From: a virus | Taxonomy: Duplodnaviria; Heunggongvirae; Uroviricota; Caudoviricetes | Strand: one strand, 5' to 3' | Virus record (IMG/VR): IMGVR_UViG_2740892231_000012 | Length of the DNA stretch: 41,599 nucleotides | In this document: piece after piece, positions 1 through 40,597 of the stretch | Layout of the letters: each line of letters starts with the position of its first letter | Position numbering within the stretch: the first letter of the stretch is position 1 | Notes under the pieces: model-generated | Database searches by the model: none | Seen by the model: the letters and a program-made list of their open reading frames with translations, nothing else | What the model was told of the DNA's origin: nothing | Translations under genes and position numbers: made by a program

Positions 1-285
1 ATGATTATCAATAACGTCAAACTGGTGCTGGAAAACGAAGTGGTACACGGTTCGCTGGAGGTGCAGGATGGCGAAATCCGCGCCTTTGCCGAAAGCCAGA
101 GCCGCCTGCCAGAAGCGATGGACGGCGAAGGTGGCTGGCTACTACCCGGCCTGATTGAGCTGCATACCGACAACCTCGATAAATTCTTCACCCCGCGCCC
201 GAAAGTCGACTGGCCCGCCCATTCGGCGATGAGCAGCCACGACGCGCTGATGGTGGCAAGCGGCATCACCACCGTGCTGGTATAG
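1..285 (+). pseudogene. phnM: 5' fragment (94 aa) of a phnM-like gene (phosphonate C-P lyase pathway), ending at a premature stop at the prophage junction
   Basis: Translation MIINNVKLVLENEVV...SGITTVL matches my recollection of the E. coli PhnM N-terminus (about 378 aa in full). The reading frame stops at 283-285, immediately before AT-rich phage-end sequence. Confidence 0.6.
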
Positions 286-408
286 CGCGGCGATTTTTTT
301 GATACCGATTTGCATTTCATTTGATACCGCTGAAAAACGCCGATACGCAACTTATTTGATACTAAATCGGCGCTTTTCTTTTGGGTTTTAGAATGAGTTT
401 TTAAGCGT

Positions 409-1146
409 TCACTCACTCTCTTTTAAACCAGTTTTAACTGTTTGTGGTTTTGGGTAAGGCTGGACTTTGAATAGCTTTGTGTTGAGGCGTTTTCTGGCCC
501 TCTTGTTCAGAAACCGGATGTAACGAAACTGACGGAATTTATGAACACTGGCTCTGTCGATATTAGCCCTCAGATGTTCACCTCGCTGTCCGCCTCGTTT
601 AATGGCATTCCTGCAAATCTCGTGATACCACTCGCCATCAAGTTCATAGAATGTTGATTCGTGGCTGCCTACATAATCAAAATTGCTTGCCTGATACACG
701 ACACCAAGACAGCCACAACGCTCATCTGCAAACGACTGAACCCACTGTACCTGCGGATAAAGCTGCCTGATTAGCTTGAGCGCGTAACTGATTGCCCTTG
801 ATTCGGAGTTTCTCGGCATACAGTCATGCAGCCATAACCGGTTAAGCTCCATATATTCACGGTTCCGCGTGCCCGTTACGACGCGTGCACCACTGTTTGG
901 ATTAAGGGCATAGCCCCATTGCATTACGCCAACCAGCTCCCGTTCTGAAAATATGCCCAGATGAAGGTAGGAGTTATTTACGAAACGGTGGCTGTAATGT
1001 TTATTGACGATGACCAGTCTGGCCAGCCAGCAACTTATTGTCTCAACCCGCAACTCACGGGAGCCATAACCAACGATATTGTCGTTATAGCGAATAAGTT
1101 CAGGCGTGCTGATGATACGGGATGTGACTTGCTTTCTGTTCCCCAC
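409..1146 (-). CDS. mom: Mom-like DNA modification protein
   Basis: 245-aa ORF that is the last gene before the phage end and overlaps the 3' end of a Com-like zinc-finger ORF, as in the Mu com-mom operon. The true start may lie downstream of 1146. Confidence 0.65.
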
Positions 1147-1300
1147 GACAGGATTTCCTTGTGTATGTGGGGTGCTCTGTGGCGCTCGGAGATGTGATTT
1201 GATTGAGGGTTTTACAGCGCGGACATTTTACTTCCAGATAACTGAAACTGGCCCGTGCCAGTAGCTTATTGCAGTGTCGGCACCGTATGTTTCGATACAT
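1100..1300 (-). CDS. com: Com-like zinc-finger translational activator of mom
   Basis: Contains [10 protein letters not shown]...VKCPRCKTL, two CxxC pairs as in Mu Com. Internal ATG at 1300 has an AGGAGG 9 nt upstream; the longer ORF reaching 1345 is probably not translated. Overlaps the mom start. Confidence 0.7.
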
Positions 1301-1342
1301 GGCCGCATAACCTCCTGCTTTGTTGTTGATGCCTTTCTCATG

Positions 1343-1490
1343 CAATCGATCGACAAAAACGATCGATTCGATTTGTTTAATTGATACAACAAATAGATTG
1401 AAAAGTCATCAACAATGATTCAGGGAGGTGATTATTTACTTAAAGAAAACGAAGAGTTAGCGAGTGAAAACGATCATAAAATGATCATTT
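1343..1490 (-). promoter_or_regulatory. GATC-rich region upstream of com-mom, candidate Dam-methylation-sensitive mom promoter region
   Basis: Several GATC sites clustered just upstream of com (in CGATCGAC and ACGATCGATT near 1345-1365, and CGATCAT and ATGATCAT near 1470-1490). In Mu, the mom promoter is controlled by Dam methylation of upstream GATC sites. Confidence 0.4.
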
Positions 1491-1573
1491 TATTGACTTT
1501 TTATCCAGTGAAGGTAGGATCGCGCGTATATGTAGTATGTTTCAAATCAACAGGATACTACATAAAAGGGAAA

Positions 1574-1612
1574 CCCAGCATAGCTGGAACTATGCTGGGT
1601 CAATCTGTAAAA
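1574..1612 (-). terminator. Candidate rho-independent terminator for leftward transcripts (perfect 10-bp inverted repeat followed by a T-rich run on the minus strand)
   Basis: CCCAGCATAG-ctggaa-CTATGCTGGG at 1577-1602. On the minus strand the stem is followed by TTTCCCTTTTAT. Confidence 0.4.
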
Positions 1613-1707
1613 ACTTGCATCAATGCTTTACTTCGAGCTCGTGGCGTATCCTATGATATTCCCCGGTCTCCTGTAAAGCAGAGATGCATAAAAAGGAGAT
1701 CTTTATC

Positions 1708-1878
1708 ATGGATAAAGAGCCTGTTTGCCCTGCCTGTAAGACTCCCTTACAGCTCATCTATCGCCGTTCTCGATCTCAAAATGGCAAGACATACAAACCA
1801 AAAAATGCTTCCTGTTTCAGGATGCTGATATGTCCTGCCTGTTCTCCCCGGAGGGAAAATACACAAAACGTGCATTAA
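1708..1878 (+). CDS. Small hypothetical zinc-ribbon protein (56 aa, CPAC...CPAC)
   Basis: ATG at 1708 is preceded by AAGGAG at good spacing. Two CPAC motifs. It is the only plus-strand ORF inside the cargo block. No homology recognised. Confidence 0.35.
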   Translation: MDKEPVCPACKTPLQLIYRRSRSQNGKTYKPKNASCFRMLICPACSPRRENTQNVH

Positions 1879-1916
1879 CAAATTCACCCGGCAGGGAAAC
1901 CTGCCGGTCGGTATTG

Positions 1917-2162
1917 TTACATCATAGTACCGTCAGTTCCGGGCTGAACCGGCTCTGGTTGCTCTACGGCTTGAGGCTCATTCTCCGTGCTGTTTTCAGC
2001 CGGAGAATGGCCAACCATTCGGGCCAGCACTTCATCAACATATGCGTCGATTTGTGCCTCAAAATCCTTGCGAACCTGCGCCTTCAGCACGCGGTTCACT
2101 TCTTCAGAATAAAGTGCCTGTTTGACAAGCTCTTCAGTAACCGTGCCTTTAATCTCTGGCAT
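1917..2162 (-). CDS. Hypothetical protein (81 aa, acidic and Pro-rich C-terminus)
   Basis: ORF co-oriented with the esterase, with GGAGAA ahead of the ATG. No homology recognised. Confidence 0.4.
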   Translation of the reverse strand: MPEIKGTVTEELVKQALYSEEVNRVLKAQVRKDFEAQIDAYVDEVLARMVGHSPAENSTENEPQAVEQPEPVQPGTDGTMM

Positions 2163-2197
2163 GAATATTCTCCTTTTGCAGGTATATTGCCCCGTTA

Positions 2198-2380
2198 TCA
2201 GAGCGGGGTCGGGTCGTTTGGGGATGACGGTGCCTGTGCTGTTTTACTGAGTTTTTCAGCTGCCGCATCATCAATTTTACGGCGAATATAATTTCTGATG
2301 ACCTTATAACCGCCGCTCACCAGATATAACGCACTGACCACTGCGCAGAAATAAAGCAGCATTGTATGAACGAATGTCAT
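2198..2380 (-). CDS. Hypothetical small membrane protein (60 aa, one predicted TM helix)
   Basis: Hydrophobic N-terminal segment LLYFCAVVSALYLVSGG followed by a basic stretch. Co-oriented with the esterase. Confidence 0.35.
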   Translation of the reverse strand: MTFVHTMLLYFCAVVSALYLVSGGYKVIRNYIRRKIDDAAAEKLSKTAQAPSSPNDPTPL

Positions 2381-2526
2381 ATAACCTTACCTTTGATATT
2401 GACTACATAATTCGTTATCGGGTAAAAACATCGAAGCGACTGATAACCACTCCTTCGGGAGTATTTTTATTTTCCTTTATGGGTTAGGTAGCTCCCGCCA
2501 GCCATATCATGACCGGCGGGATTTTT

Positions 2527-4566
2527 TTATTCTGTTACCGCTTTTTTCACTTCCACCACAATGCTGTCAATCAGCACCGGGTAAGTTGCATTTTTTGTGA
2601 TATCCGTTACGCGGAGTTTGTCCACCGGGAAAGTTCCTACTGGTGACTGCGTCAGGGTAAACGCGGCACCATCCTGACCATCAATAACCGGAATAACCTG
2701 AAGGCTGTTATTTCCTGCAAAACGGAAGGCCAGCGTATGCCATTCATTATCAAATGCACCAAAGGTTCCCAGTTTCTGGTTATTTGTTGCCACTTTTGCA
2801 TTGTGGTACATCACATTCAGGTCTTTTGCGTCTGTCTGGATGTAGAACGATGCCAGCAGATTATTCCCTGCATCCCCTGTCAGGGTGACACCCTGCGGCA
2901 GAGAGGAAACCGGCCAGTAAAGCGCCATGACATACTGGTTTGCCACCAGGTCGCCCGGTACTTTAAAACGACAACTGATTAAACCACCATTTTTCAGCAG
3001 TTCAGCACCAGTACCGGCATCATGATCCAGATACCAGGATGATTTACCTGTTTCCTTGGTCAGTTTCATTGCCTTACCACCTGTGCCTCCTGCATCACTG
3101 ATAATTTCAGCTTTACCGCCAGCCGGCTCCCAGCCCTGGGCTTTCAGATTTCCTTCTGACTCACTGACACGGTAAGACAGCAGTGTTGTGGTTACTGCTT
3201 CAGTTTCTGAAGGTGACGGCACTGGTGCTTCAGTTTCAGAAGATGGAACATCGGCTTTTACTGTGGTTCGCCCCGCATGAGTCAGAACTGCCGTGGCCAG
3301 ACGGTCGGAAATAATCCCACGACGTGCCCATGAACTGAAATGGCTGGCCCGGTCCGTAGATGTCCAGGTGGCGGCACTGTTACGCCACGTTGAGCCGTAA
3401 TAACCAATGGATTCAATATCCGGGTCTTCTGCCGGATTGTTGGTGGGTACATTCGCGCCATTTTCATCTGTCATTAATGGGACGAAATGAATGTTTTTAT
3501 CTGTTTTATTTTTGTAGCCGTCATAGATTGCCTGGTATGCCTGTTCGTTTTTCTGTTTCCAGAAATACGTGGTATCACCACAAATCCACGGAACGCCAGC
3601 AGCACTGCCACCGGTACACTGTTCCGCCTGTTCAGCCAGGTCTGCGCGGAATTTTTCCACCATCGCCAGAAACAGCGCAGAATGCTCCGTCGGCTTCGCA
3701 TCAATATCAAACTCGCCCTGCATCCACACCACAGCAAGCAGGCGGTTTTTCGGGTTCTTCGCCAGTGCCGCTTTTGTCCGGCTGATTAAGTCCTTATACA
3801 GCGGCTTATCCACACCCCAGCGGGCTGAGTCCTCTGAAGCACCCGTGCTGTCACTGTACGTGCCGTCAGCACCCACCGTGAATGCAGAACCACCACGGCA
3901 GCAGGGAACCAGCAGAATCCCCGCATCTGCCGGAATAAACGGCAGCAGTTTTTTGGCAATGTGAAGCCCCTGACCCACGGTGCCATATTGCCCTTTAGCC
4001 ACATCCGCTTTCGGGTGATTTTTTCCACTCATATCCTGCACATCATGCAGACAGTGGTCGGCCAGAATGATGTCGTTATACTGACAGGCTTTACCTCCCG
4101 GCGTGACTGTACTGCGACGGGCTAACTGCATAATACGCGGTTCGGGGCGGTCATATGTCTCCGGCAGTGGCAGACCTTCACCGTAAGCCATACCGTTTGA
4201 CTGACCAGCAAGAACCACCACGTAATACCAGGAAGGGGAGCTGGAAGCAGTTTCATTTCCTGACGGACGGGTATGTGTTTCAGCATTATCCCAGTCTGAC
4301 GGTTCAGCAGTACCGGCAACATCAGCACTTAACGGAATGACCGCACCAATACCCGCTCCGGTAATTTCCACACTCGGATCACCGGATACTGGCCTTACCC
4401 ACAGGCAATCCCGGGTATTAAAACTGATGAGACAGTCAGCAAATGTCATTCCTCCTTTTGTTTCGGCCGGAGGAAAGGGAGCCTCAAGAAATGCCGCTGT
4501 ACCACCGGAAACTTTAACAGTAAAGTTTCCGGGCATTGATGATAGTTGAACCCATTTGGACGTCAT
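2527..4566 (-). CDS. Putative carbohydrate esterase, sialate O-acetylesterase (SASA/DUF303) family, resembling prophage NanS-p; cargo gene
   Basis: 679-aa ORF with VVVLAGQSNGMAYGEG, which matches the GQSN catalytic-serine motif of SASA-family SGNH esterases. Long C-terminal domain looks like a carbohydrate-binding module. Sits between gin and com, where Mu has no gene. Confidence 0.6.
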   Translation of the reverse strand: MTSKWVQLSSMPGNFTVKVSGGTAAFLEAPFPPAETKGGMTFADCLISFNTRDCLWVRPVSGDPSVEITGAGIGAVIPLSADVAGTAEPSDWDNAETHTRPSGNETASSSPSWYYVVVLAGQSNGMAYGEGLPLPETYDRPEPRIMQLARRSTVTPGGKACQYNDIILADHCLHDVQDMSGKNHPKADVAKGQYGTVGQGLHIAKKLLPFIPADAGILLVPCCRGGSAFTVGADGTYSDSTGASEDSARWGVDKPLYKDLISRTKAALAKNPKNRLLAVVWMQGEFDIDAKPTEHSALFLAMVEKFRADLAEQAEQCTGGSAAGVPWICGDTTYFWKQKNEQAYQAIYDGYKNKTDKNIHFVPLMTDENGANVPTNNPAEDPDIESIGYYGSTWRNSAATWTSTDRASHFSSWARRGIISDRLATAVLTHAGRTTVKADVPSSETEAPVPSPSETEAVTTTLLSYRVSESEGNLKAQGWEPAGGKAEIISDAGGTGGKAMKLTKETGKSSWYLDHDAGTGAELLKNGGLISCRFKVPGDLVANQYVMALYWPVSSLPQGVTLTGDAGNNLLASFYIQTDAKDLNVMYHNAKVATNNQKLGTFGAFDNEWHTLAFRFAGNNSLQVIPVIDGQDGAAFTLTQSPVGTFPVDKLRVTDITKNATYPVLIDSIVVEVKKAVTE

Positions 4567-4860
4567 AATAATCAGCCTGTTCCTGAATAAACTGAATTAT
4601 CATATCCACAGACCGATAAACGCCATTTTGCGTTAATTCAGTAAAGGCCCAACAAAGGGAGCGTCTTATTTTTCCGAAACGCTCGCAGGATAATAACGAT
4701 AAAGGGTTGAAAGGCCGATATCAAAAATAAGTGCCACCTGTCTTCGACTGACACCCCCGGCCAGTAAACGCCCAACCTGCTCGTATTGTTCCTGCGTGAG
4801 ACGGCGGGGTCTGCCGCCGGTTCGTCCCCTTTCACGGGCAGCNNNNNNNNNNAGAGCGTC

Positions 4861-5603
4861 TTATTTTTCCGAAACGCTCGCAGGATAATAACGATAAAGG
4901 GTTGAAAGACCGATATCAAAAATAAGTGCCACCTGTCTTCGACTGACACCCCCGGCCAGTAAACGCCCGACCTGCTCGTATTGTTCCTGCGTGAGACGGC
5001 GGGGTCTGCCGCCGGTTCGTCCCCTTTCACGGGCAGCTGCAAGACCAGCCCGTGTCCGTTCGACAATTAATTCACGCTCCATTTCTGCCAGCGCACCCAT
5101 TATGTGAAAAAAGAAGCGCCCCATGGGGGTTGACGTATCAATGTTGTCAGTAAGACTACGAAAATTTATCCCCTGTTGCTGTAATTCATCTGTCAGCGCA
5201 ACAAGGTGGCGCATACTGCGCCCCAGCCTGTCCAGTTTCCAGACCATCAGCGTGTCACCGGGTTTTAGTTTCTTCAGTGCCCGCTTCAGTCCCGGCCGCT
5301 GTGTCGTTTTACCACTCATTTTGTCTTCAAAAATCTGCTCACATCCTGCACATTCCAGCGCATTTCTTTGTAAACCGGTGTTNNNNNNNNNNACATACTG
5401 CGCCCCAGCCTGTCCAGTTTCCAGACCATCAGTGTGTCACCGGGTTTTAGTTTCTTCAGTGCCCGCTTCAGTCCCGGCCGCTGCGTTGTTTTTCCGCTCA
5501 TTTTGTCTTCAAAAATCTGCTCACATCCTGCACATTCCAGCGCATTTCTTTGTAAACCGGTGTTCTGGTCATTTGTTGATACGCGTATATAGCCAATCAG
5601 CAT
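4861..5603 (-). CDS. gin: Gin DNA invertase (serine recombinase); coordinates include an N10 gap at 5383-5392 and its duplicated flank
   Basis: MLIGYIRVSTNDQNT...GDTLMVWKLDRLGRSM...INFRSLTD...GRFFFHIMGALAEMERE is closely similar to Mu Gin / Hin-family invertases. A second copy of the gin 3' end at 4666-4842 is a gap-flank duplicate. Confidence 0.9.
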
Positions 5604-5665
5604 GTATTTACCTTCCTTAAAAAGAGGTGGAAAAGCCTTTTAAAGCAGATATACGGCATCCCTGA

Positions 5666-5692
5666 AACCTCGGTTTACGGGATACGGTAAAC
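5666..5692. promoter_or_regulatory. gix-like recombination site, right boundary of the invertible segment
   Basis: AACCTCGGTTTACGGGATACGGTAAAC resembles the Mu gix core and is an inverted copy of the site at 7206-7232. Lies directly upstream of gin. Confidence 0.6.
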
Positions 5693-6037
5693 AGGGCCGC
5701 GAATGCCCTGCCATCAAACGGTACGGCTGTTGCAGCAAGCAGGCTGGCAAATGCCCGCAGAATCAATGGTGTCGCCTTTGACGGCACGCAGGATATAAAC
5801 ATTACGTCAGGAATGCCGGAATCAACGGCCAATCAGCGTTATGTTACAGGGGTAAGACTGGGAGCGCAGGCATTAAGCGGCGGACTGGAATATAATTACT
5901 CCCTGTCATCAGGAAATGTGATTACCGGTTTTAAGACTGACGGAGACTGGGAAATGCGTGGTGGTGATGACCGTGTTTATTACAGACAGATACAATATTG
6001 TATTAATGGGCATTGGGTATCCGCTGCAAGTATTTAA
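5681..6037 (+). CDS. Silent alternative tail-fibre C-terminal cassette (S'v-like), promoterless in this orientation
   Basis: Translation DTVNRAANALPSNGTAVAASRLANARRINGVAFDGTQDINITSGM... parallels the S segment ...TVNKAADALPSGGTAVAANRLATPRNINGVPFDGTLDINITSGM. C-terminal YYRQIQYCINGHW parallels YYRPVQIYINNAW in S. Confidence 0.6.
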   Translation, partial: DTVNRAANALPSNGTAVAASRLANARRINGVAFDGTQDINITSGMPESTANQRYVTGVRLGAQALSGGLEYNYSLSSGNVITGFKTDGDWEMRGGDDRVYYRQIQYCINGHWVSAASI

Positions 6038-6158: not shown

Positions 6159-6810
6159 ATGCAACTGATTAATGTCAAACGATATTACCCGAAAGACAAA
6201 CCCTATGGTGAGGATGTTCAGTATTTCCAGAGTGAGGACGGAAGGGATTTTTATGAATCTATCCCGCTTTTTACAAAGAAATACAAACTCTGTATTTCGC
6301 CTGTAACGGGTATTATCTGCTCTGTTGCTGAAGATGTCTCTGCTTTATATCCGGCAGGTTTTACTGTTGTTGAAGTGGACGAACTGCCGGAAGGTGTGAA
6401 TATTGACGGTAACTGGCAGTTTTCTGATGGCCTGATATCAAAGGTGCCGGTAAACTGGAAGACGGTTGCTGAAAAGCGCCGCTCATCGCTGCTCCAGGAA
6501 GCCAACGAAACTGTGGATGACTGGAAAACGGAATTAAAACTGGACATGATTAGCGATGAAAATAAATTACAGCTGACGCGCTGGATGGCGTATATCCGNN
6601 NNNNNNNNTCGCTCATCGCTGCTCCAGGAAGCCAACGAAACCGTGGATGACTGGAAAACAGAATTAAAACTGGACATGATTAGCGATGAAAATAAATTAC
6701 AGCTGACGCGCTGGATGGCGTATATCCGACAGCTTAAAGAAATGCACCTTAATGATATTGCCAGTGAGGGGCATTACCAGGCGATTCCCTGGCCGGAAAA
6801 ACCGGAATAA
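6159..6810 (+). CDS. Tail-fibre assembly protein (U/Tfa family); includes N10 gap at 6599-6608 and duplicated flank
   Basis: Similar to Mu U: ...GIICSVAEDVSA..., ...FTVVEVDELPEG..., and C-terminal ...MISDENKLQLTRWMAYIRQLKEM...IPWPEKPE. Confidence 0.75.
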
Positions 6811-38391: not shown

Positions 38392-40597
38392 TCAGGCCAG
38401 CGGGTCATTTTCTTTTAATTTCGCTTCGAGCAACTGCAATCCCCGCTGGAAATTGCGCTCGTATTCTTCATCAGGCTCATCATCAACGGCAGGTTGCTGA
38501 ACGGCCACCGTATTACCTACCGGGCGATAGATGTTTTCCAGCCAGGGCTCCTGCGGCTTGTGCTCCAGCACGTTGACAACCTCATCCTCGGCATCACGGA
38601 TTTTTTCCTCTGCGCGTTTACGCATGCCTTTAAGGCGTTGCTGCTGTTTGTAGTATTCCGCGCTAACCGGGAAGGCTTCGCGTTTATTACCGTCCCATAC
38701 CGCCTCGCAAATCACGCTGCCATCCAGGCGACGTACGGTAATTCGTTCGGCATCATGAATGTCATAGCTGATAAGCACCTTGCGGCCATGCTCATCACGC
38801 AGCTCGGGCGCGTAGTAAATATTATTCAGCCAGCGTATTTCACAGCGTCTTACAGGGCGTTCCACCATCGGCCGGAACATGTCCCGCAATTCCACATCGG
38901 ACAGCCATTCAATTTCCGTGTCCTCTTCCGCCAGGCGTTTTTTTCTGAACTCCGCCGGGCTGTAATGCTTGCCGTTCGGCTTCACCGGTAATTCATCGTG
39001 CGGCCGGTTGTTGTACCACTCAACACCATCACGAATGGCATCAATCAGTTCAGACCAGGACGGTAAATCACGCATCGCTGACTGCTGCCGGGCGTTCAGC
39101 CGTTTGCCCTGTTGCAGGGCAGTAAATGCCGAGCGTAAATCGCGGTTGGTTTTGCGTAACGTCTCGCGATCTGCACCTTTCCCGAAATAGGTGCGGTATT
39201 TACGGGCTATGCGCATCGGTAATGTGCGGTTAAGCCGTTCGATAATGCCTCGTCCCTGCGGATTACCGGCAATCCCGGTCGGGTGATTAATCCCCAGTCG
39301 CGGCAGTATCCCCACAACCTCCTTATCCAGGATGTCGGCGGTTTCCCCGGAGCCGTTATCCGAGTAATACAGAAACGGTTTGCCGTGATGGCGAATGCCG
39401 TGCTGTATGGCACCGGCTACGGCGAAAACATTTTCAGCCAGGTCAAGGCTCCAGCCCACCACAAAGCGCGTGCCACCGTCGATAACAAAGGTCACTTCCG
39501 GTGCAAATGGCCGACCGTGAACCGGGTGTGCGCATTTCAGCTTCATGCCGTGACCGTCACCAATCCAGACATAATTCACCGGCATTTTTGACCAGTCGCG
39601 GCGCGTGAATCCCTCAAGCTGGCGGTATTCACTGCCGGTCACCCGGCCTTTTTGTTTCACCACTTCCGGCAGTTTCTTCATTGCGCGGCGAATGGTGTCA
39701 TAAGACGGCATGATATCGAGCATATAAGGCTCATCAGCGTGCCGGTGCTGCCATTCAGCGACAAAATCCTCGTAAGCCTCGGTCATTGGTCGGCCGTTTG
39801 ACTGGCGATACTGCGCCAGAAATTCGGGCAGCCAGTTAATATCTTCGGCTTTTATTTCCTGGCGCTTACCCGGTGCCAGTAAAAGCAGGCGTTCAGCGGC
39901 GTTCTGCGCCTTGTTAAAGGCCGCAATCCAGCGTTTCAGCGTGATTTCACTTAACGCGCGGCTGTTTCCCTTTTTGGCGTTCGCCGTCTCAACCATTGCC
40001 ACAATGCGCTCGTCCAGCTGCGAACGNNNNNNNNNNTGCAATCCAGCGTTTCAGCGTGATTTCACTCAACGCACGGCTGTTTCCCTTTTTGGCGTTCGCC
40101 GTCTCAACCATTGCCACAATGCGCTCGTCCAGCTGCGAACGTGCCAGGTTGTCAACGATAAACCGGATAGCCTTCGCACAGCTGAAACCAGGTTGTTGCG
40201 CGACTTTCAGAACTTCGCTGACGATCGCGATTCGTGCATCAGCCACCTGGCGCTGGTTTTCAGTCAGGGCATTAAGGCGTTCGAGCATCAGTTGTGGTGA
40301 TCCGCGATATGCCTCCACCGCATCAACCACGGCAGGCGAGCGTCTGGCCTTTGTCACCACCGGAGCTGGTGATTCATCGGCTTTTTGCGTCATCAGTTGC
40401 AGGGCGTAGCGTTCACGTAATGCCTGCTGCGTCACTTCAGGTAAACAGTCGATGCTGTATTCAGTTGCTTTAGAGCCTGAGCGACGACGGGAACAACAGC
40501 TTTTCCCTTGTACGTAACGTTGTAATGCCTGGCGAATACCTTTTGTTGTAGCAGGCATTCCGGGCGCGCCAATCAGTTCTTTTGCAATGACATACAT
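38392..40597 (-). CDS. A: DDE transposase A (MuA-like); includes N10 gap at 40027-40036 and a duplicated flank of about 100 bp
   Basis: Long ORF downstream of ner, with MuA-like N-terminal DNA-binding region and catalytic core. The track shows ...ARSQLDERIVAMVETANAKKGNSRALSEITLKRWIA on both sides of the gap. Confidence 0.9.

Follow-up and report, generated by a model that had tools for sequence, protein, structure and literature searches.

We analyzed a small block of sequence near the left end of a 41,599-nucleotide (nt) stretch of viral DNA (hereafter the window), IMG/VR record IMGVR_UViG_2740892231_000012, which is assigned to the Caudoviricetes. The window's left end corresponds to the right end of a Mu-type prophage that lies in the reverse orientation. 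The sole plus-strand features of this stretch belong to a unit built around a small open reading frame (ORF), which opposes mom, com, DUF826, DUF1378, an esterase gene, and gin on the minus strand; the sequence-only reading of this DNA had noted that the small ORF opposes all of its neighbors. The features in and around this unit are listed below (SL, stem-loop; aa, amino acids; bp, base pairs).

1415-1828, plus strand: longer ORF of 137 aa that overlaps the small ORF in a different frame; 154 aa when an extra G follows 1713
1493-1520, plus strand: sigma-70-type promoter candidate with -35 TTGACT (1493-1498), a 16-nt spacer, and -10 TAGGAT (1515-1520); 9 of 12 consensus matches
1529-1564, plus strand: SL1, a 10-bp stem (TATGTAGTAT / ATACTACATA, 100% complementary) and a 16-nt loop, with which the transcript is predicted to begin
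1573-1583 / 1590-1600: SL2, a perfect 11-bp inverted repeat with a 6-nt loop, ACCCAGCATAG-CTGGAA-CTATGCTGGGT
1616-1688, plus strand: SL3, a long imperfect hairpin formed by TGCATC/GATGCA, TGCTTTAC/GTAAAGCA, GAG/CTC, TCG/CGG, and TATC/GATA
1648-1677, minus strand: promoter-like site TTTACA-18-TAGGAT, inside SL3
1693-1698, plus strand: Shine-Dalgarno sequence AAGGAG, 9 nt 5′ of the ATG, invariant in all relatives
1700-1718, plus strand: SL4, an 8-bp hairpin (TCTTTATC-ATG-GATAAAGA) whose loop is the start codon, present in the minimum-energy fold
1708 (ATG) to 1876-1878 (TAA), plus strand: 56-aa zinc-ribbon-type gene encoding MDKEPVCPACKTPLQLIYRRSRSQNGKTYKPKNASCFRMLICPACSPRRENTQNVH
1888-1907: hairpin CCGGCAGG-GAAA-CCTGCCGG, located where the small ORF and DUF826 converge, between their stop codons

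We consider it probable that positions 1493 to 1907 represent one autonomous plus-strand unit of a Mu-like prophage, consisting of a promoter, a structured leader, a zinc-ribbon gene, and a terminator. In this arrangement, the promoter would start an mRNA near position 1528 that heads away from com-mom, and the first ~180 nt of this RNA would fold as a leader composed of SL1, SL2, SL3, and then SL4, which would hold the AUG in its loop. The strong ribosome-binding site and the 56-codon gene would come next, and the hairpin shared with the convergent DUF826 gene would end the unit. SL2 would most likely control message stability or translation, possibly as a protein-binding site, and the protein would be made from a promoter that needs no phage activator. 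In kind, such a unit would be an ordinary small prophage gene cassette that is new in its details and known from E. coli and Salmonella only.

The small ORF sits in the tail of the longer ORF on the same strand, which the sequence-only reading did not mention, and public annotations follow the longer frame. RefSeq carries a single 154-aa coding sequence over 1415-1878 in O157:H7 strain F8798 (WP_115801860.1, “hypothetical protein”), and the same stretch is labeled “frameshifted” by the Prokaryotic Genome Annotation Pipeline (PGAP) in strains CV261 and 90-3040. The 55-56-aa ORF is annotated in none of the three RefSeq records examined. This annotation difference is due to one G after ATGGAT (window 1713/1714), which fuses a 98-codon upstream frame to the zinc-ribbon frame. 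Among 5,426 complete E. coli genomes, the G is absent in 68 and present in 139. The annotated locus corresponds to 1415-1878 in the window, and to 5316-5779, 3316-3780, and 1220-1685 in three of the related loci (L001, L002, and L046, respectively).

These annotations raise the alternative that the 154-aa ORF is the real gene, in which case the window would carry a frameshifted pseudogene, and both the promoter and SL2 would be mere coding sequence. The frame-fusing state is the more common one, the RefSeq protein has a matching 154-aa cluster with 205 member sequences, and PGAP calls the copies without the G “frameshifted.” Even so, we find this explanation highly improbable because the two frames have evolved so differently. 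The first 18 related loci yielded 13 distinct alleles, all of which preserve the zinc-ribbon ORF, as does every further E. coli-type allele; the upstream frame, in contrast, is truncated in 6 of the 13. In the zinc-ribbon frame, polymorphisms comprise 7 synonymous and 5 non-synonymous changes (ratio 0.21, binomial P = 0.0085), and the same sites read in the other two frames give ratios of 1.61 and 0.50. The Salmonella-type alleles of the small ORF likewise have dN/dS values of 0.13-0.27. The upstream frame of the long ORF, with a ratio of 0.57 versus 0.77 and 0.56 in the alternative frames, exhibits no frame-specific constraint.

Insertions and deletions (indels) tell the same story. Net -1 or +2 indels break the upstream frame in 11 of 18 distinct E. 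coli sequences, including alleles that have the extra G together with version B of the SL2 hairpin, where a stop falls at codon 56. Furthermore, indels and compensatory substitutions in the SL2 hairpin rewrite the supposed 154-aa protein (KPSIAGTMLGQSVKTC versus GPDSYSYLDLEQIR), and in one locus (L020) the first 32 codons of the long ORF are shared backbone that is followed by unrelated sequence. When the extra G is present, the zinc-ribbon frame still keeps its own ATG (MKEP...) behind the same AAGGAG, and copies without the G start with MDKEP.... Finally, the Salmonella homologs are stand-alone genes of 52-53 aa that are annotated on hundreds of contigs. These patterns indicate that the short ORF is a real gene under purifying selection in its own frame, and we judge that the long ORF at 1415-1828 is not a gene but an artifact of a preference for the longest ORF. 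The ORF with two CPAC motifs and an AAGGAG site that the sequence-only reading described is therefore present, conserved, and constrained.

Gene callers favor the 135-137-aa frame, which explains why the 56-aa protein is nearly absent from protein databases. An exhaustive HMMER scan of 1.84 billion representative proteins recovered one distant relative, a 53-aa Salmonella protein with 47% identity that is encoded at the same position and that shares MDKE, both CPxC motifs, GKTY+PK, and CSP. About 200 complete E. coli genomes, many of them from Shiga toxin-producing strains, label the locus as a 154-aa hypothetical protein or as a “frameshifted” pseudogene. Given the evidence for a 55-56-aa gene, pseudogene counts and small-protein catalogs would be wrong at this locus.

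The candidate promoter TTGACT-16-TAGGAT was also proposed by the sequence-only reading, and it is present at 1493-1520 as described, although its support comes from a conserved position and not from the match to consensus alone. In Salmonella the counterpart is TTGACT-16-TAAGAT, whose spacer has diverged but whose -35 element is likewise 37 nt from ATGTAGT. Locus L044 carries a near-consensus TTGACG-16-TATAAT at the equivalent place, equally far from SL1, although the sequence around it is different. Across the relatives, the -10 element is TAGGAT, TAAGAT, or TATAAT, the spacer is always 16 nt, and the distance from the -35 element to SL1 is always 35-37 nt. This conservation of hexamer position and spacing supports a promoter-like site across the two genera. 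A GC-rich CGCGCG stretch lies 3′ of the -10 element, and we predict that transcription would start near A1528, directly 5′ of SL1.

The leader predicted to follow this start site is better conserved than the gene that it precedes. Between the window and the Salmonella locus L028, identity is 77% in the promoter, 84% in SL3, and 84% from the Shine-Dalgarno sequence to codon 4, compared to 51% in the body of the ORF and 41% in the stretch between the com control region and the promoter. Thus, a leader of ~180 nt has been better preserved between genera than its ORF (84% versus 51%). Salmonella retains the stem of SL1 but has a different loop sequence. SL3 ranks with one other block as the most conserved part of the unit, and consensus folds reveal compensatory changes at four SL3 pairs. 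In Salmonella, SL4 reads TCTTTATT, which gives a U•G pair that is workable on the plus strand only. In SL3 and SL4 together there are 18 G•U cells versus 4 A•C cells, which favors the plus strand. A search of Rfam over 1300-2000 produced no match (best score of 17 bits versus thresholds of 40-80).

In three loci (L033, L036, and L041), the promoter and the leader up to ~1688 are followed instead by a different 68-aa ORF, which argues that the leader is a module in its own right. This alternative ORF (MDKLTTDPKLQAAR..., L033 8039-8245, plus strand) converges on a ~57-aa ORF (MDKNKKQPDTKGLE..., L033 8208-8444, minus strand), and at L020 1584-1779 the ~57-aa minus-strand ORF alone replaces the whole hairpin-plus-zinc-ribbon module. 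Neither the 68-aa nor the ~57-aa ORF has a family match above threshold.

SL2 is the most sequence-variable piece of the region, yet it always pairs. The sequence-only reading had described a perfect inverted repeat of 10 bp at 1577-1602; the repeat is indeed perfect, but it spans 11 bp at 1573-1583 and 1590-1600. Folded as RNA, it reaches -21.3 kcal/mol on the plus strand (z = -4.25) and -22.1 kcal/mol on the minus strand (z = -4.70), and no shuffled sequence is as stable. Three versions of SL2 occur in E. coli and four more in Salmonella-type loci, all of which fold at -15 to -23 kcal/mol. Because MAFFT and RNAalifold misaligned the stem at its indels, the seven versions were registered to the structure by hand, a procedure that, with few lineages, makes the resulting numbers lean toward pairing. 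In this table, 70 of 71 cells hold standard pairs, 6 of the 11 pairs have changed on both sides while remaining paired, and none of 2,000 column shuffles matches the observed pairing. The window's version has one whole inserted base pair, and the two half-steps of this insertion are seen as bulges in two other versions. This pattern indicates that selection on SL2 is for pairing and not for sequence.

An inverted repeat of this kind could instead work as duplex DNA, either as the operator of a dimeric regulator, which the sequence-only reading had suggested, or as a recombination or cruciform site at the junction of swappable modules. The perfect palindrome lies only ~60 bp from ~1512, where L020 diverges, its inner bases (CCAG..ATAG / CTAT..CTGG) are common to several E. 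coli versions, and GATC sequences are enriched in 1340-1720. However, the two arms have changed in concert at 6 of 11 positions and have gained a complete base pair, and the 6-nt loop varies and lacks symmetry. A nearly identical small protein, which is the obvious candidate binder, is found beside very different stem sequences, and the hairpin does not coincide with the recombination junctions seen (~1512, ~1688, and 1880). A paired stem that changes freely around an asymmetric loop favors a folded single strand over a duplex operator, and we therefore rate the DNA-level explanation as very unlikely. SL2 is best read as part of a 5′ leader, given that it sits between a conserved promoter and a conserved ribosome-binding site in a leader that is more conserved than the ORF.

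GATC sites at 1483-1486 and 1518-1521 flank and touch the candidate promoter, with the latter overlapping the -10 element. The interval 1340-1720 holds 6 GATC sequences in 381 bp, versus 2.96 per kb window-wide, an enrichment of about five times. Two of them lie in a palindrome (AATCGATCG...CGATCGATT, 1344-1368) upstream of com, and those at 1483 and 1518 are kept in Salmonella L028. The enrichment hints at Dam-dependent control of both divergent promoters.

At the distal end of the unit, the hairpin at 1888-1907 folds at -18.3 and -21.2 kcal/mol on the two strands (z = -3.6 and -4.1) and is a candidate two-way terminator for the small gene and DUF826. In Salmonella, a canonical plus-strand terminator (ACTCCAGCC...GGCTGGAGT TTTTCTG) is located 3′ of the ORF.

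The weakest link in our interpretation is the strand on which SL2 acts. We favor the plus strand because of the upstream promoter, the contiguous Shine-Dalgarno sequence and constrained ORF, the Salmonella terminator, and the wobble pairs of SL3 and SL4, and this call does not rest on the wobble pairs alone. Several observations weigh against the proposed plus-strand unit. The folding energies of the whole leader are equal on both strands and so provide no strand discrimination, and version B of the hairpin is more stable on the minus strand (-19.2 versus -12.8 kcal/mol). Six promoter sites of the type found at 1493-1520 occur in 5.5 kb, compared to 5.7 ± 2.3 in shuffled sequences, meaning that the match alone is not above chance. 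The minus-strand site TTTACA-18-TAGGAT, which was found independently in the window and in Salmonella, is invariant in its hexamers and spacing in 20 of 20 distinct sequences with four spacer versions. The minus-strand site is as invariant as the plus-strand one, and thus part of the leader conservation could serve an antisense RNA.

With regard to the gene, one allele group (L010, L025, L026, and L031) has a C7Y change that affects the first of the predicted zinc ligands, either alone or combined with R48Q, and one Salmonella-type copy is frameshifted in an A-run (L045, 1667-1750), so the protein appears to be dispensable in some lineages. Because the family is narrow and confined to E. coli and Salmonella, the number of independent lineages behind all of the comparisons is small. 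The phage can also do without the module, which has been replaced in its entirety in L020. Finally, neither the peptide nor the DNA of the small ORF appears in the supplements of a ribosome-profiling study of O157:H7 Sakai. As a separate observation, some lineages seem to be losing the protein yet keeping the leader.

The evidence regarding strand bears on another explanation, in which SL2 acts on the minus strand as a terminator. In one version, it would stop leftward read-through from cargo or late genes before the toxic com-mom operon, much as the sequence-only reading had proposed. In a second version, it would end a ~75-nt cis-antisense RNA that starts near 1641 from TTTACA-18-TAGGAT, is complementary to the leader of the small gene, and controls that gene as in type I toxin-antitoxin pairs. 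SL2 is the top terminator-like match on the window's minus strand, with 13 pairs (stem of -22.1 kcal/mol) followed by TCCCTTTTAT, and the window's tail UUCCCUUUUAU was flagged by the scan. The stability of version B on the minus strand and the invariant promoter-like site both fit this explanation. Moreover, L044, L042, and L019 carry a tandem duplication whose repeat unit comprises the hairpin together with its neighboring ACTACATAAAGGGA, a motif that reads as the U-containing tail on the minus strand, and the tail of the second L044 module (ACUCUUUUAUG) is a better U-tract.

Nevertheless, the minus-strand tail in most versions (CCCUUUAUG) starts with CCC and has only three U residues, and the Salmonella hairpin is not flagged as terminator-like. 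The separate hairpin at 1888-1907 already lies 3′ of DUF826, which makes the read-through version partly redundant, and the genes to the right in Salmonella L028 are on the plus strand, leaving no leftward cargo transcripts there to be stopped. The proposal that SL2 terminates leftward cargo transcripts is weakened as a result. The invariant hexamers can also be explained by SL3 structure together with a CUCCU that is complementary to the Shine-Dalgarno sequence, and the hydrophilic, basic character of the small protein sets it apart from most type I toxins. Taking both versions together, we hold a minus-strand terminator to be doubtful, and we continue to favor a role for SL2 in a plus-strand leader.

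The tandem arrangement itself involves ACTACATAAAGGGA, the hairpin, and ~35 nt (L044 1099-1230, L042 1508-1640, and L019 ~780-957). The second copy is diverged and bulged, and its 5′ flank repeats the 3′ arm of SL1 such that alternative pairings with the 5′ arm of SL1 are possible. We had considered that the tandem hairpins of L019 might be an assembly artifact, but this idea was dropped because L044 and L042 share the arrangement, which is probably real.

The small protein carries CPAC at residues 7-10 and 42-45 (CPAC-x31-CPAC), and the four cysteines and both prolines are invariant between E. coli and Salmonella. It has an isoelectric point of 9.8, with 11 K+R versus 3 D+E residues, a grand average of hydropathy (GRAVY) of -0.88, and no hydrophobic stretch. 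An AlphaFold2 model of moderate confidence (predicted local distance difference test score of 70) places strands at residues 15-20 and 36-41 between the CPxC knuckles. The protein thus fits the zinc-ribbon structural class and would be expected to bind one zinc ion through its four cysteines. Judging only from its composition and fold class, it is probably a small nucleic acid-binding factor.

Database searches returned no established family for this protein. There is no match above threshold in Pfam, PHROGs, NCBIfam, or PADLOC, a sequence search of the PDB gave only chance CPxC matches, and a Foldseek comparison of the AlphaFold2 model against the PDB gave nothing at E < 1. The Salmonella form scores 14.2 bits (E = 0.04) against TIGR03831 (YgiT/MqsA-type), for which the cut-off is 20.2 and to which the window protein has no match. 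It also scores 21.2 against PF13453 (cut-off of 22), and the score with Trm112p is 17.2 (cut-off of 22). Like the small protein, YgiT/MqsA-type and TFIIB-type zinc ribbons have two CPxC or CxxC knuckles ~30 residues apart around a beta-hairpin, but all scores of the small protein are below the family cut-offs.

Among E. coli and Salmonella Mu-like prophages, the unit is found divergently upstream of com plus mom or of com plus a C5 DNA cytosine methyltransferase (C5-methylase) gene. It always adjoins the tightly controlled, toxic DNA-modification module of Mu-type phages. On the other side there are three different sets of downstream neighbors; L028, for example, has three plus-strand ORFs there, and L042 has a 754-aa esterase. 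The downstream genes in Salmonella have no match above threshold in family or defense libraries. With a constant com neighbor and varying downstream genes, the unit appears to travel with the com side and not with the esterase cargo, which is at odds with its earlier placement within a cargo block. Two scans of species-representative genomes, one with the single protein and one with an alignment, found no relative, and the only annotated phages that carry the locus are two records of Shiga toxin (Stx) phages with a Mu-like insert. A 2026 paper on small RNAs of enterohemorrhagic E. coli mentions Sp18 only for prophage loss in a mutant.

The C5-methylase takes the place of mom at L020 165-1217, L028 6398-7450, L042 1-1149, and L046 1-951. 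These methyltransferase-bearing relatives, from both E. coli and Salmonella, keep com and the upstream GATC-containing control region. Com-type control may serve a different DNA-modification enzyme in those elements.

One set of comparisons is with the Mu genes. Mu Com controls mom translation (PMC3378877). Com is a zinc-finger translational activator, a basic protein of ~60 aa with four cysteines, and the small protein is like it in size, charge, and cysteine count; com is encoded within 400 bp of the unit. However, the small ORF is not matched by the Com family profile (PF10122) at E ≤ 1, and the cysteine spacing of Com (CxxC-x16-CPxC) differs from the CPxC-x31-CPxC of the small protein. With no detectable homology between the two, sequence comparison indicates that the small protein is not a Com homolog. 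The small gene also has a candidate promoter of its own and lies on the strand opposite to com, and RNA binding by its product is putative. In Mu, RNA hairpins around the start codon reportedly control translation, as described in work by Hattman and Kahmann. As in the Mu com-mom mRNA, the AUG and Shine-Dalgarno sequence of the unit lie in or beside conserved hairpins. When read by eye, the minus strand at 1141-1215 contains a CCCCAC...GUGGGG hairpin around the mom start. A link between the leader hairpins and this Com target was considered and dropped, as the two have no similarity.

Transcription that leaves the mom control region in the direction of the unit has a precedent in Mu momP2, a promoter pointing away from mom that is bound by RNA polymerase when the activator C is absent (PMC3378877). 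momP2 overlaps Pmom, whereas the candidate promoter of the unit is located ~170 bp further out. Mu itself has no equivalent sequence because gin abuts Pmom.

The unit also resembles a moron in that it has its own sigma-70-type promoter and terminator, lies in a variable region, can be swapped or lost (L020 and L033), and needs no phage activator site. It differs from usual morons in having a long leader that is more conserved than its gene and that is reused 5′ of a different ORF. Another likeness is to type I toxin-antitoxin systems and to RalR/RalA (Lar) of the Rac prophage, with which the unit shares a small prophage protein, a long structured 5′ untranslated region, and a possible antisense RNA. 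RalR/Lar is a small cysteine-rich prophage protein linked to restriction alleviation. The small protein differs in being hydrophilic, and searches of Pfam, NCBIfam, PHROGs, and PADLOC assign it to none of the Lar or toxin families.

In a bolder proposal, the unit would be a regulatory cassette under sense/antisense control. The protein would bind nucleic acid and tune the Com-dependent modification module (mom or C5-methylase) or host restriction, while the leader and a ~75-nt antisense RNA ending at SL2 would gate its synthesis. We regard this proposal as speculative and distinctly unlikely. If true, the anti-restriction arm of Mu-type phages would have a previously unseen layer of control, and the leader would represent a new cis-regulatory RNA motif able to precede different small genes. 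The well-conserved, reusable leader and the neighboring modification module make this locus a tractable candidate, both as a new leader RNA motif and as the source of a small regulator with a link to anti-restriction.

The remaining features of the window's left end are as follows.

1-285: truncated host ORF that stops exactly at the start of the prophage end
409-1146, minus strand: mom (Pfam Mom, 4.5e-77)
1100-1300, minus strand: com (Zn_ribbon_Com PF10122, 3.3e-12, 46.1 bits)
1917-2162, minus strand: DUF826
2198-2380, minus strand: DUF1378
2527-4566, minus strand: SASA/DUF6645 esterase, 679 aa
Right of the esterase, minus strand: gin-type invertase

The ORF at 1-285 appears to be the 5′ portion of an interrupted host gene. 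Its sole Pfam result is a weak hint of an amidohydrolase (E = 0.077), and the gene presumably resembles phnM. Other strains carry the same prophage within a variety of host genes (oppF, and the flanks of L013-L018), as would be expected of a phage that transposes.

The window includes fifteen runs of exactly 10 N (4843-4852, 5383-5392, 6599-6608, and 12 more, up to 40027-40036). At the first gap, the 3′ end of gin and the sequence downstream of it are present twice, at ~4650-4842 and from 4853. The N runs and this duplicated flank show that the window is an unfinished scaffold of short contigs. The small-ORF unit lies within one unbroken contig (1-4842).

The trio of esterase (SASA/DUF6645), DUF1378, and DUF826 genes (window 1917-4566; L002 453-2180) matches gene families known from the annotation of lambdoid and Stx prophages, in which the esterase goes under the name yjhS or 9-O-acetyl-N-acetylneuraminic acid deacetylase. 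The Mu-like prophage itself interrupts an esterase gene of this kind in a lambdoid prophage, both in strain F8798 and in two Stx-phage GenBank records.

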